Source: an uncultured Burkholderiales bacterium (GTDB lineage Bacteria; Pseudomonadota; Gammaproteobacteria; Burkholderiales; Burkholderiaceae_C). Taken from it: 64,000 nt of DNA. Below are positions 39,348 to 43,551 of this stretch, piece by piece. Below the pieces are notes generated by a model that was given only the letters and a program-made list of their open reading frames with translations, did no database searches and had not been told where the DNA came from. Location of the stretch: the NCBI GenBank assembly GCA_903949285.1, contig CAJAYT010000015.1, positions 15,843-79,842 of the forward strand, in the 5' to 3' direction. A program made the position numbers and the translations under genes. Numbering within the stretch: the stretch's first letter is position 1; each line of letters opens with the position of its first letter.

Positions 39348-39545
39348 ATTTTTACAAACTCTCACCAATCCAATTCAAATTTCACCTTTTACCCAGTCGA
39401 CGCGCTGAGTCAAAACGGTGTTTGTTCAATTAATGGACTTGGCAGTCAAACTACTAATGTAGCTTGATTGACAAAAGTCTTAGCACCCCATCAGAGATCA
39501 AACCACTAGGTTTTGATTTTATTGTGCAAATATGGAAACCTATTA

Positions 39546-39857
39546 ATGGTAACTAGCAAGAAAAAATTTGACTCTCACCTCAAAGAATTCGAAGAGGCAC
39601 TGCGTATTTCAATTGAGCAAAATTTGCGCGGTAAGTTTGAAAGCTTACAAGCGCCCAATGAACTACTAACTCGGCGAAGAGGCAGGCCACAAGGTACTAC
39701 CAAGCAAAATCCCAAAGTCTCAACAACAATTAGGTTATCACCGGAAGTTATTTCAGCATTCAAATCTACTGGTACTGGATGGCAAACTCGTATTGATGCC
39801 GCCCTCAAGGATTGGTTGATACAACATCCACCCAAAAAATCGCTATCTAAAATTTGA
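39546..39857 (+). CDS. BrnA-like antitoxin (C-terminal ribbon-helix-helix), no cognate toxin upstream
   Basis: RRGRPQGTTK..KVSTTIRLSPEVISAFKSTGTGWQTRIDAAL matches the BrnA/DUF4415 pattern. Start moved to ATG 39546. Confidence 0.85.
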   Translation: MVTSKKKFDSHLKEFEEALRISIEQNLRGKFESLQAPNELLTRRRGRPQGTTKQNPKVSTTIRLSPEVISAFKSTGTGWQTRIDAALKDWLIQHPPKKSLSKI

Positions 39858-40226
39858 ATTACTTGCGCACTACTTTTTAATAGCGTATCGTCAATAGATA
39901 GAACAAATGACTGGGTTTTAGTAAAACTACAATGCCTAGATCTTATTAAAGATTTTTTGAGTTCAGCAGTCTACTATGGTAATCTAACGAGCTAATCAAC
40001 TGAACCAAGGAAAGTTACGGCAGCTAAAGGTTCGATCGTGATTTTCAAATCAAAATAAGAATACTTCTCCGAACAAGACTTCACAAAAATTAACTGCTGC
40101 GAACATGCTGACCAAGTAACATCAAATAAAGTCAACTACAGCGTTTTACGCCGCACTTAATTTAACAAATTAAACTAAATCTTGAAACGGAAAAGGCAAG
40201 GGCTATTGTCGATTATTGAATAACTT

Positions 40227-40568
40227 TCAAGCATTACCGGCTGCTTTTTTGAGCGCTTTTTCTAATTGGTTGTAGTACTTATCGGCTTTTGCCGTAAGGC
40301 TTACGTACTTAGTTCGCCTGTTATCACCATGGTGGCTTGTTTCAATGAAACCCAATTTTATTAAATTCAAAAACTTTTTATGCAAAGTCACATGAGAACC
40401 AATGCTATCGAGCACTAATAGGTCACCAACTGTAATTGTAAGATTTTGGGAGGTGCGTATAGCTATTTCATCCAATAATTGCTTACTGGTTTGATCTAAT
40501 TCAGGGTAGTCCAAAGCTTGCAACGCATGTTTGGCTCGAATTATGAAGTTAACGTATGAATTTGTCAT
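40227..40568 (-). CDS. Winged helix-turn-helix protein, MarR-like
   Basis: 113 aa with a predicted HTH (TVGDLL..SHVTLHKKFLNLIKLGFI) and a wing GDNRRTKYVSLT like the MarR D-x-R..LT motif. Confidence 0.7.
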   Translation of the reverse strand: MTNSYVNFIIRAKHALQALDYPELDQTSKQLLDEIAIRTSQNLTITVGDLLVLDSIGSHVTLHKKFLNLIKLGFIETSHHGDNRRTKYVSLTAKADKYYNQLEKALKKAAGNA

Positions 40569-41137
40569 TCATTTCTAAAGTAGGTTTTATACATAATTAT
40601 AAGGAAATGCGCAATGGCCACAACCAAAAAACAACCCGTAAAGTCTCCTACGACCATAGCCATGCTTTTAGCCCAATATTCATTCGGTTGAGTTATGCCA
40701 AGGGCTATATAAAACAAGTTGTGAACAAATCCATTCACCATACTCGCAGTCAAGCTCAAAACCACAATATGTATATATTTTAGATTAGCCAGATCCGCCT
40801 GTATACGAAGCAATGGAGCAATCACATAAACTGCGAACATATAGCTACCAACACTGGGTATTGTGAATAACACAAATTCTAGTGTATGAAGAGTAGTTAC
40901 ACTATCCCAAGCATCATAAGCTAGCAGGACACTTGCTAAAAAGATACCTAAAACCGCTGGTAATCGACCTACCAAAATACACAAAAGCTTAACTCCCGCG
41001 GGTAAAAATACCATGCTGACTCCGGCACTAAATAGAACCCAGGAGTTAAAAAACTCATTCACCTTGAATGATAAAGCGAATGCAATATAGCTAACAATCG
41101 CAATAACAACATCAAAAGAATCTAATTTATAAGGCAT
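40565..41137 (-). CDS. Stand-alone MASE1-like integral membrane protein
   Basis: 190 aa with about 5-6 hydrophobic segments; FLPAG and GDFTG resemble MASE1 motifs; ATGA overlap with the wHTH gene. Confidence 0.6.
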   Translation of the reverse strand: MPYKLDSFDVVIAIVSYIAFALSFKVNEFFNSWVLFSAGVSMVFLPAGVKLLCILVGRLPAVLGIFLASVLLAYDAWDSVTTLHTLEFVLFTIPSVGSYMFAVYVIAPLLRIQADLANLKYIHIVVLSLTASMVNGFVHNLFYIALGITQPNEYWAKSMAMVVGDFTGCFLVVAIAHFLIIMYKTYFRNE

Positions 41138-41141
41138 AAAA

Positions 41142-41182
41142 AAGTTGTATTTTTTAGTAATTAATTAATTTTAATACAACTT
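41142..41182. promoter_or_regulatory. Candidate operator: perfect 10-bp inverted repeat in a divergent promoter
   Basis: AAGTTGTATT (41142-41151), 21-nt spacer containing AATTAATTAATT, AATACAACTT (41173-41182). Confidence 0.5.
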
Positions 41183-41232
41183 ATATTAATAGTTATATAA
41201 TTTTTAATTATTAAACAATAAAGAACTAATAA

Positions 41233-42993
41233 ATGAAAAGAATACTAATAGCCATTATTCTGATAACAACATCGATTGCATTCGTAGCATGCGGTGGTGG
41301 TGGAGGCGGTGGCGGTTCGCCTAGTCAGAGTACGACTATTGGTGGAACTGCCGCCACAGGGGCACCCATTGCAACGGGCACGATTACGGTGACTGATATT
41401 CATGGAGTAACAACCACCGGAACAGTTGGTGTTTCCGGCTCATTTTCCATAGATCCTAGTGGACTCACCGCTCCTTTGTTAATAAAATTAGATGGGGTTA
41501 CCGCGGTTGGTTCACCTATAACCTTATATTCAACTGTTGCAAGTTTTTCAACTGGTTCGATAAATACCTCAAACATTACTCCGCTTACTGATGCAATAGT
41601 AAGACTAATTGCAGGAACAGGAAATTCAGTTAGTCCAGCATCCGTATTACCACTTGTAACGCAATCTACAATTAATCAAGCCAATAATGTCCTTACAGGT
41701 GTCCTTAGTAATGCACTTAGTCAAGCCGGCGTTTCCTCAAACTCCAATTTTATTACGACATCGTTTGCACCAAATGGAACTGGAATCGACTTCCTTTTAG
41801 ATGGAACAAAAGTAGTTCAAAATGTTCAACTAAGTAGCCTAGAAATTCAAAATGCCTTTACAAGTGGAAGTGCATCCATTAGCGCATCACAAGGAGGACT
41901 AAGTCAAGGACCAACTATTACTGGTTCCTTGCAAGCTGTTGCTAACCTATCAAGCACCCAATTAGCTCAAATCACACAAGTTACAAATGCTTTTGATATA
42001 GATTTTAGTAACGGTGATCTTCAAAGTATTTTGAGTATTTCTTCGCCTAATTTTTTGCAGGACGGAATGAATGCACATGATTTTTGGAGTAATTTACTCC
42101 AAACAACTGGCTGGGGAACTGCTGTAATTAATACTGTAGCAAACATAGAGTCGTGCTCTTCAAATTTAACTTGTAATGTCTCTTTTAGATTTACATCCAC
42201 CACGCACGAGCCATTCAGTATGTACTCGTACTCAGGCATGCCTTATTATTTTTTCACCCAAATTGTTTGGGATGCCACAACAAATAAATGGCTACTGTAT
42301 GGTCGACAAAACCACGTTCAATCCACTGTCACTTACCTCATTAATCAGACAAATCAATACCTTCAGTCCAGCATTGCTTATGGTACACCGACGGCGTCTT
42401 ATTTAATTGATATTAACCAAACTGGATCAGTCGCAGGAATCACCAGCGTTGATGTATTTGTAAATAATATAAATATCGGAACCTTAAATGGTTCATCCTT
42501 TTCGTCAAATCTATCGATAAGCGATACCACTGTAGCTTCGTTATTAAACGTATCGCAGGTTGGCGCAAACACCGTTGTACTCAAGATTTACAAGGGCTCG
42601 ACTTTATTCGAAACTCAAACACATTACGGAGTTGGCCTCCCTCTCACTTCAGGCTATGTTTCAAATACACCCATCATGACTCTAACTTCAGACAGTTTAA
42701 ATGCACTCAGATCGTATAACGGGGCTACGTCACACTTAAATTTATTTCTAACACCTAATGGTACAACTACATTTGGATTTAGATCCTACAATTACCTAGG
42801 TACAACTGGCATCCCTTTTGTTCCTAGCAGTGGATACACTCAAATTAACGTTGACTTCATAATGTCGCAACTATCAAGCATCCTACCATCTCAAGCACAA
42901 GCCTCACGCAGTTATGGTATTTGGGGATTTGATCCAAACGGACGATTTGAATATGTTCAGTACAACGGGTGTAATTTTTCTGTTTGCCAGTAA
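41233..42993 (+). CDS. Large Ser/Thr/Gly/Asn-rich predicted outer-membrane lipoprotein (adhesin-like, function unknown)
   Basis: Signal MKRILIAIILITTSIA, lipobox FVAC, Gly8 linker and beta-rich GTAATGAPIA..ITVTD module; few charged residues. Confidence 0.75.
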   Translation: MKRILIAIILITTSIAFVACGGGGGGGGSPSQSTTIGGTAATGAPIATGTITVTDIHGVTTTGTVGVSGSFSIDPSGLTAPLLIKLDGVTAVGSPITLYSTVASFSTGSINTSNITPLTDAIVRLIAGTGNSVSPASVLPLVTQSTINQANNVLTGVLSNALSQAGVSSNSNFITTSFAPNGTGIDFLLDGTKVVQNVQLSSLEIQNAFTSGSASISASQGGLSQGPTITGSLQAVANLSSTQLAQITQVTNAFDIDFSNGDLQSILSISSPNFLQDGMNAHDFWSNLLQTTGWGTAVINTVANIESCSSNLTCNVSFRFTSTTHEPFSMYSYSGMPYYFFTQIVWDATTNKWLLYGRQNHVQSTVTYLINQTNQYLQSSIAYGTPTASYLIDINQTGSVAGITSVDVFVNNINIGTLNGSSFSSNLSISDTTVASLLNVSQVGANTVVLKIYKGSTLFETQTHYGVGLPLTSGYVSNTPIMTLTSDSLNALRSYNGATSHLNLFLTPNGTTTFGFRSYNYLGTTGIPFVPSSGYTQINVDFIMSQLSSILPSQAQASRSYGIWGFDPNGRFEYVQYNGCNFSVCQ

Positions 42994-43429
42994 AAGCAAT
43001 GTTTACAAAAATTTATCTTCACTTTAGAAATTCATTCATGTGATTTTTTTCATGAAGATAAGTTGATTTACACCTGAACTACAAAGCACTCTGTCAATTC
43101 AGATTTACTCACGTGCTTATTCTTGCCGTATAGATTTTCGTAACTATTCTCGCAAATAATCGAATACACAAGCTAGTAGTAACGTTTCAAATATTCTATT
43201 TTCTAAGCACTGTTTTTAATGATGCTGGCTCATCCAGCAAAATGAATTCATGGCTTTCATGAAATTTTCGGCTTAATAGCCACTTCTTATTAGCGCAAGA
43301 AATTCTAGGGCAATCGGAACAATTTAGGATCCGTATTAGCTTTCAAAGCTTAAACAATGTCCCGTAAAGCCACTGCTCAAGCAACTGTTAGACATATTTA
43401 GACTACCTTATACTTGGAGCAACCAGAAC

Positions 43430-43455
43430 TGCGGTAGAAATGCGGTAGAAATGCG
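43430..43455 (+). repeat. Tandem 11-mer TGCGGTAGAAA x2.4 just beyond the tRNA-Thr 3' end
   Basis: Read directly: tgcggtagaaa tgcggtagaaa tgcg, ending 22 nt from the tRNA CCA. Confidence 0.85.
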
Positions 43456-43477
43456 CTTGGATATTGGGAAACCAATT

Positions 43478-43551
43478 TGGTGCCGCTTGCGAGAATCGAA
43501 CTTGCGATTGATGATTACGAATCAACTGTTATACCACTTAACTAAAGCGGC
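43478..43551 (-). tRNA. tRNA-Thr(CGT), 74 nt with encoded CCA, atypical
   Basis: GCCGCTTTAGTTAAGTGGTATAACAGTTGATTCGTAATCATCAATCGCAAGTTCGATTCTCGCAAGCGGCACCA: perfect 7-bp acceptor stem, 4-bp D stem, CGT anticodon, TTCGA loop. One mismatch each in the anticodon and T stems. TATAAT at 43568-43573 upstream. Confidence 0.88.

Follow-up and report, generated by a model that had tools for sequence, protein, structure and literature searches.

MASE1 is a membrane domain known as the input part of signalling proteins, UhpB being one of them. In Escherichia coli the domain (Pfam PF05231) is the membrane input of DgcE, PdeA and PdeF; the full domain comprises about 300 aa with 8-10 membrane helices, it is the docking site within DgcE for the cytoplasmic protein RdcA, and the DgcE MASE1 domain is toxic in E. 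coli when overproduced alone (PMC6510439). Short stand-alone proteins have also been annotated as "MASE1 domain-containing", for example from a 537-nt gene of Mycobacterium intracellulare (10.1101/2025.04.09.647911). In Bacillus subtilis, the polytopic membrane protein SdpI sequesters the winged helix-turn-helix (wHTH) repressor SdpR with neither a kinase nor a second messenger (PMC2910880). Here, we describe a two-gene unit that brings together a relative of MASE1 and a small wHTH protein. It lies in a stretch of 64,000 nucleotides (the window) from an uncultured Burkholderiales bacterium (GenBank assembly GCA_903949285.1, contig CAJAYT010000015.1, positions 15,843 to 79,842) and encodes a 190-aa membrane protein, here called half-MASE1, and a 113-aa protein, here called mini-MarR. 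The members of both families are complete, stand-alone proteins; the two families are inherited together, and their genes are usually adjacent and often translationally coupled.

The pair resembles SdpI/SdpR in being a two-gene unit in which a small wHTH protein goes with a polytopic membrane protein, about 200 aa long. On a signal, SdpI captures the autorepressor SdpR at the membrane, and this is the mechanism that we propose below for the pair. The families are nevertheless unrelated: the Pfam scan gave no SdpI-type match, SdpR is ArsR-type rather than MarR-like, and SdpI/SdpR comes from Firmicutes whereas our pair comes from Betaproteobacteria. SdpI moreover confers immunity to a known peptide toxin, and no such toxin is linked to the pair. 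Mlc/PtsG is a similar case of sequestration at the membrane, and BlaR1/BlaI represents a related theme. As in BlaR1/BlaI and MecR1/MecI, the gene of a (here putative) membrane sensor adjoins that of a small wHTH regulator, but BlaR1, of about 600 aa, combines a penicillin-binding sensor with a repressor-cleaving zinc protease, and the pair holds nothing comparable. Whereas the initial annotation of the window knew of no characterised system of this kind, SdpI/SdpR is such a precedent (PMC2910880). The literature that we searched contained no link between MASE1 and a MarR partner. The novelty lies in the partners, half-MASE1 and mini-MarR, and the proposed mode of action has a precedent.

The half-MASE1 and mini-MarR families

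Both genes are on the reverse strand, at 40565-41137 for the membrane protein (six predicted helices) and at 40227-40568 for the wHTH protein. Read directly from the sequence, the forward strand at 40565-40568 is tcat, so that an ATGA on the reverse strand joins the TGA stop of the membrane gene to the ATG start of the wHTH gene, an overlap that on this reading amounts to translational coupling with the membrane gene upstream. The initial annotation had placed these two open reading frames (ORFs), their overlap and the ORF of a divergent 586-aa lipoprotein exactly there.

The membrane protein carries FLPAG at residues 44-48 and GDFTG at residues 164-168. In an alignment of 22 family members (A1), these motifs are the most conserved columns, with P46, G48, G164 and G168 invariant within LPAGxKLL and GDFxG. 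Pfam MASE1 did not match the window protein even at E<=1, its sole Pfam match at that level being a weak one to DUF6476; NCBIfam gave no significant match for it, and nothing was found for the family among PDB sequences. Three of the 22 aligned members have sub-threshold matches to Pfam MASE1 over profile positions ~5-175 of 299, the best scoring 26.6 bits against a gathering threshold of 29.8 bits. The A1 profile also matches the N-termini of six frames of 1016-1121 aa in related genomes. One of these frames (L088:1041-4109, G119:C46) is a 1022-aa sensor with the order MASE1(2-180/299)-CHASE-GGDEF-EAL, and hhalign of A1 against the N-terminus of this MASE1-CHASE-GGDEF-EAL protein returned a probability of 95% (E 3e-8), placing the FLPAG and GDxxG of the family on the FLPAG and LGDTMG of this genuine Pfam-MASE1 protein. 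The kinship to MASE1 proposed in the initial annotation, together with its two motifs, was therefore recovered, at the profile level only, given that the window protein itself has no Pfam MASE1 match at E<=1.

Searching 1.84 billion representative proteins with the A1 profile yielded 1017 relatives (610 with E<=1e-10); among the top 150, almost every protein measured 175-205 aa. A truncated MASE1-GGDEF or MASE1-kinase gene was considered and rejected on this length distribution, and the absence of an output domain noted earlier for the 190-aa protein holds for the family. Taken with the motif and profile kinship, these lengths identify the membrane protein as complete and not as a truncated sensor: it stands alone and is homologous to the first ~180 residues of MASE1. 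With MASE1 it shares homologous sequence, FLPAG and GDxxG, and the build of an integral-membrane bundle of helices joined by very short loops. It differs in covering the first ~180 of ~300 residues, with six helices instead of 8-10, in lying below the Pfam threshold, in not being fused to a GGDEF, EAL, PAS or kinase output, and in being encoded with a separate DNA-binding protein. In the 1022-aa sensor, the match to MASE1 goes no further than profile position 180 and is followed by a periplasmic CHASE domain and then GGDEF-EAL, suggesting an independent evolutionary module within MASE1 that comprises its first ~180 residues.

The AlphaFold2 (AF2) model of the membrane protein is helical throughout (predicted local distance difference test, pLDDT, 89; predicted template modelling score, pTM, 0.84). 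Loop charges suggest six helices, cytoplasmic N- and C-termini and, at 108-121, a conserved loop on the cytoplasmic side. Conserved residues within the predicted membrane helices are N27, K50, N135/H139/N140 and D165. Against the PDB, the best Foldseek matches of this model were S components of energy-coupling factor (ECF) transporters (5edl, ThiT 4tkr, 4huq_S and RibU 5kbw), with template modelling (TM) scores of 0.48-0.63 and weak E-values of 0.1-0.4. Like these S components, the protein is a six-helix bundle of about 190 aa; unlike them, it has no Pfam, NCBIfam or PDB sequence match and no EcfT or EcfA gene nearby.

The window wHTH protein reaches 18.1 bits for Pfam HTH_27 (cut-off 22.2), and the best MarR_2 E-value among 16 members of its family was 1.7e-4, the Pfam MarR thresholds not being passed. 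Neither family has a model in Pfam or NCBIfam. The AF2 model (pLDDT 89.7) shows the order a1-a2-a3-a4-wing-a5 with a single C-terminal helix at 93-110, and nearly all of its top Foldseek matches are MarR/SarA-family structures (TM 0.50-0.71). Compared with the PDB, the family profile matched SlyA (5.5e-6) as well as TcaR and AdcR, and MecI weakly (E 0.0055). The MarR-like fold named in the initial annotation was thus confirmed by model and profile. The protein has the winged-helix fold and the conserved recognition helix and wing of MarR/SarA regulators (SlyA, MarR, MepR, Rv0880, SarX), and its own SPATxHRK helix and NRRTKY wing are strongly conserved across paralogues. At 113 aa it is nevertheless shorter than MarR proteins of about 140-150 aa and closest in size to the single-domain SarA-type SarX. 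Alignments of the family profile to MarR structures stop near MarR residue 113-133; the helices present are the DNA-binding and dimer helices only, and the C-terminal helices, by which MarR proteins complete dimer and ligand pocket, are missing. In the model, no part of the wHTH protein itself is therefore an obvious sensor.

To determine how widely the two proteins occur together, we surveyed 301 genomes from 201 genera of the same GTDB family as the window. The membrane protein was present in 19 genomes, all 19 of which also have the wHTH protein; three genomes have the wHTH protein alone and none has the membrane protein alone (Fisher p 2.7e-27 by genome and 9.5e-20 by genus, phylogeny not being corrected for). 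Across all loci examined we counted 25 non-redundant adjacent pairs: 14 with the wHTH gene upstream of the membrane gene, 3 in the opposite order, which is that of the window, 6 divergent and 2 convergent. Overlaps of 1-4 nt recur in both gene orders (L029, L030, L031, L032 and L078), with some start codons and overlaps uncertain where ORF calls were rough in high-GC loci. Across pairs, the protein distances of one partner correlate with those of the other (Mantel r 0.55, p 2e-4), evolution being faster in the membrane partner. When five distant members were picked arbitrarily from the global library, the membrane gene adjoined a wHTH-family gene in four of them. The co-occurrence that the initial annotation had made a point for checking is thus borne out. 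The genes around the pair vary by locus (HemB, Dus, TerC, CysK-like, MFS, CrtC, AMP-ligase, TctC, EamA, resolvase), and clustering the neighbours at 18 loci in other genera revealed no recurrent third gene. Judged from these neighbourhoods, the conserved unit in freshwater Comamonadaceae is the pair alone, since the flanking genes differ between loci. At one locus (L084, G195:C5, 4642-6323) a single wHTH gene lies between two membrane paralogues and is oriented opposite to both. At another, the wHTH-adjacent membrane gene appears split over two contigs (L083, G111:C1, 7469-7735, and G111:C15:75208-75510), either as a pseudogene or through an assembly break.

Limnohabitans is atypical, the wHTH family being expanded there. 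In the window's own genome, seven wHTH copies are scattered among housekeeping genes, with one weak, more distant match in addition; one copy (C163:2020-2346) has an in-frame TAG and is probably a pseudogene. A profile search located the membrane protein in 9 of 11 Limnohabitans genomes that had seemed to lack it, and G016 and G005 of this genus have the wHTH protein without the membrane protein. A cultured strain, Limnohabitans sp. Jir61, also encodes a membrane homologue (L059). The closest homologues of the window membrane protein (43-48% identity), found in many Limnohabitans and Comamonadaceae genomes, overlap by 4 nt the end of hemB, the porphobilinogen synthase gene, with no wHTH gene nearby (L036:6772-8357, L037:5035-6680, L039:5393-6978, L051-L057 and L065). 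Translation of the MASE1-like protein is there coupled to that of an enzyme of haem synthesis. A further subgroup lies directly 3' of a TerC-family gene on the same strand (L041:4951-6348, L045:4753-6111 and L046:5541-6903). The second membrane paralogue of the window's genome (C17:47484-48047, L111:3485-4048) is convergent with an NtrY/NtrX-like kinase-regulator pair, and in two metagenome loci (L001 and L002) the genes of a membrane homologue and a histidine kinase are arranged divergently. Stand-alone half-MASE1 proteins may work for kinases as well.

A proposed split switch and a possible local repressor

We propose that the pair is a split one-component switch working like SdpI/SdpR, a reading to which we assign a probability of roughly 0.4. 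The membrane protein would be the input half and the wHTH protein the output half. A wHTH dimer would bind DNA through the SPATxHRK helix and the NRRTKY wing and repress at least its own operon. A signal, possibly a small molecule, an ion or a lipid, would be perceived inside the membrane helix bundle, for which N27, K50, N135/H139/N140 and D165 are the proposed sensing residues. The cytoplasmic face, above all loop 108-121, would then bind or release the wHTH protein, as SdpI does with SdpR, and so change the repression of at least the pair's own operon; it is this sequestration of the wHTH protein that we infer. In the window's genome, the pair would have come to lie within a low-GC islet and to face an orphan lipoprotein gene head-to-head. 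The split switch is favoured because MASE1 is known only as an input domain and in DgcE docks a cytoplasmic protein, because the wHTH protein is minimal, and because presence is one-sided, the membrane protein never being found without the wHTH protein within the family. Such one-sidedness fits a sensor that needs its output.

Several observations weigh against a split switch. In a class-wide sample of 350 genomes, the one further genome with the membrane family (G660, from another family of the same class) has the membrane protein without a clear wHTH protein. The window's genome has seven wHTH paralogues and two membrane genes, most copies of both families are unlinked in Limnohabitans, and the membrane paralogues coupled to hemB or following terC have no wHTH gene nearby. 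No fusion of wHTH and membrane protein was seen among the longer matches (218-359 aa), which carry just extra hydrophobic or low-complexity N-termini. A common operator upstream of 38 wHTH genes was not found when dyads and k-mers were compared with shuffles, only AT-rich dyads exceeding the shuffles, and none was apparent by eye in 21 operon leaders. The best membrane fold matches are S components, which would suit a small transporter, and MarR-type regulators commonly repress just the adjoining gene.

These last points lead to the strongest of the alternatives, in which the wHTH protein is a plain MarR-type repressor of an adjoining membrane effector (an S-component-like transporter, a channel or an immunity protein) and itself senses any ligand in the cytoplasm, the two proteins making no contact. 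We regard this as possible but on balance unlikely. Besides the S-component matches and the tendency of MarR regulators to adjoin their targets, it draws on the conserved intramembrane polar residues, which resemble a binding or transport site, and on the paralogues in hemB and terC operons that do without a wHTH partner. Yet the membrane family is homologous to MASE1, a domain known only for signalling input, and the helices from which MarR proteins usually form their ligand pocket are absent from the 113-aa wHTH protein. There are no EcfT or EcfA genes among the neighbours, the Foldseek E-values are weak, and the one-sided presence in the 301 genomes would be unexpected for a mere target gene.

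The lipoprotein neighbour, the islet and other readings

The lipoprotein gene (41233-42993, forward strand, 586 aa) is an orphan that stands head-to-head with the pair across a spacer of 95 bp (41138-41232) with 9.5% G+C, a length and AT-richness already noted in the initial annotation. Its product has a signal peptide and the lipobox ...IAFVAC/GGGG, and in the mature protein the Cys is followed by eight glycines (a GGT/GGA/GGC run at 41260-41290). In the near-identical locus L049 there are six glycines, so the run varies in length between the two. Pfam gave no match for the lipoprotein, and the only others were weak, to the PaeY N-terminus (NCBIfam) and to one PHROG of unknown function. Nine homologues were found in 5.8 billion proteins, and the window's genome holds no paralogue.

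The initial annotation had the pair sense an envelope or surface cue and control the divergent, variable lipoprotein through an inverted repeat in the spacer, a model that we now consider improbable. In its favour, the head-to-head layout over 95 bp forces the promoters to overlap, and L049 keeps the same trio. However, the lipoprotein was not found near any other pair locus examined (tblastn and phmmer), and neither pair gene lies close to its homologues of 80%, 26% and 29% identity; the lipoprotein was therefore rejected as a conserved partner. Nor can it be called variable, being 95% identical in L049 against 92% and 94% for the proteins of the pair. The spacer does contain a perfect 10-nt inverted repeat (AAGTTGTATT at 41142-41151 and AATACAACTT at 41173-41182), as described earlier, but its supposed role as a control element did not hold: 384 of 2000 dinucleotide shuffles of the spacer (19%) yield a perfect repeat of at least 10 nt, and in L049, where the spacer region is 94% identical, one arm has an uncompensated change. 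On both grounds we rejected the repeat as an operator. Comparison of loci thus points to the lipoprotein as a neighbour outside the conserved module and to the head-to-head layout as a local accident of the islet. Local co-regulation of the pair and the lipoprotein gene is possible, because both promoters must share 95 bp, but unsupported, and the claim of a sensor controlling a surface lipoprotein should not be carried forward for the window.

The islet spans about 4 kb (39350-43477) at 35-40% G+C, compared with 47% for the genome, and comprises a brnA-like gene, the pair and the lipoprotein gene. At its right it abuts a tRNA-Thr(CGT) gene on the reverse strand (43478-43551, ARAGORN), whose 3' end at 43478 faces the islet. 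Neither an integrase gene nor, at the islet borders, a direct repeat of the tRNA end was found, and a DNA search for an empty site across 61 Limnohabitans genomes matched only other tRNAs. The gene at the left edge, on the forward strand at 39513-39857, encodes a BrnA-like antitoxin (Pfam BrnA_antitoxin, 9.9e-19); no ORF of BrnT size lies upstream, and L049 has the same layout. This gene is either an orphan antitoxin or one whose toxin gene has been lost.

A small two-gene unit of patchy distribution, present in multiple copies at variable insertion sites, could also be a selfish or defensive cassette, toxin-antitoxin-like or acting by abortive infection, in which the membrane protein would be a membrane-damaging toxin and the wHTH protein its repressor or antitoxin. 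The low G+C content, the islet with its BrnA-like gene beside tRNA-Thr, a pair elsewhere that adjoins a resolvase gene and the toxicity of the overproduced DgcE MASE1 domain (PMC6510439) are all compatible with such a cassette. Still, PADLOC matched neither protein, PHROGs were uninformative on a phage origin of the pair, and divergent and convergent arrangements occur. In addition, many membrane copies have no adjacent wHTH gene and are coupled to housekeeping hemB, which a toxin would not tolerate. We therefore rate this explanation as even less probable than control of the lipoprotein. Finally, a coincidental adjacency of genes without a functional link, which the many unlinked copies of both families in Limnohabitans might suggest, has a negligible chance of being correct and is already contradicted by the comparative data (co-occurrence p of about 1e-20 or lower, adjacency in 25 independent pairs, and overlaps of 1-4 nt that recur).

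Relevance for MASE1 signalling

MASE1 is among the commonest membrane inputs of cyclic di-GMP enzymes and kinases, and its signal and mechanism are largely unknown (PMC6510439). A natural six-helix MASE1 core with a separate 113-aa DNA-binding protein would offer a very small and tractable system for questions on what MASE1 binds and how it communicates with a cytoplasmic partner. A split switch of the kind proposed here would add a Gram-negative, MASE1-based case to the few switches that hold a repressor at the membrane. As Pfam and NCBIfam offer no model for either family, annotations of "hypothetical" or a loose "MarR family" now stand for hundreds of these genes. More tentatively, half-MASE1 proteins might in general be S-component-like, ligand-binding membrane receptors that directly control a dedicated mini-MarR, capturing and releasing it at the membrane, and forming a widespread class of split one-component systems; we hold this broader view to be doubtful for now. 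If true, the pair, being split, would provide the simplest experimental handle on MASE1 sensing and signalling.

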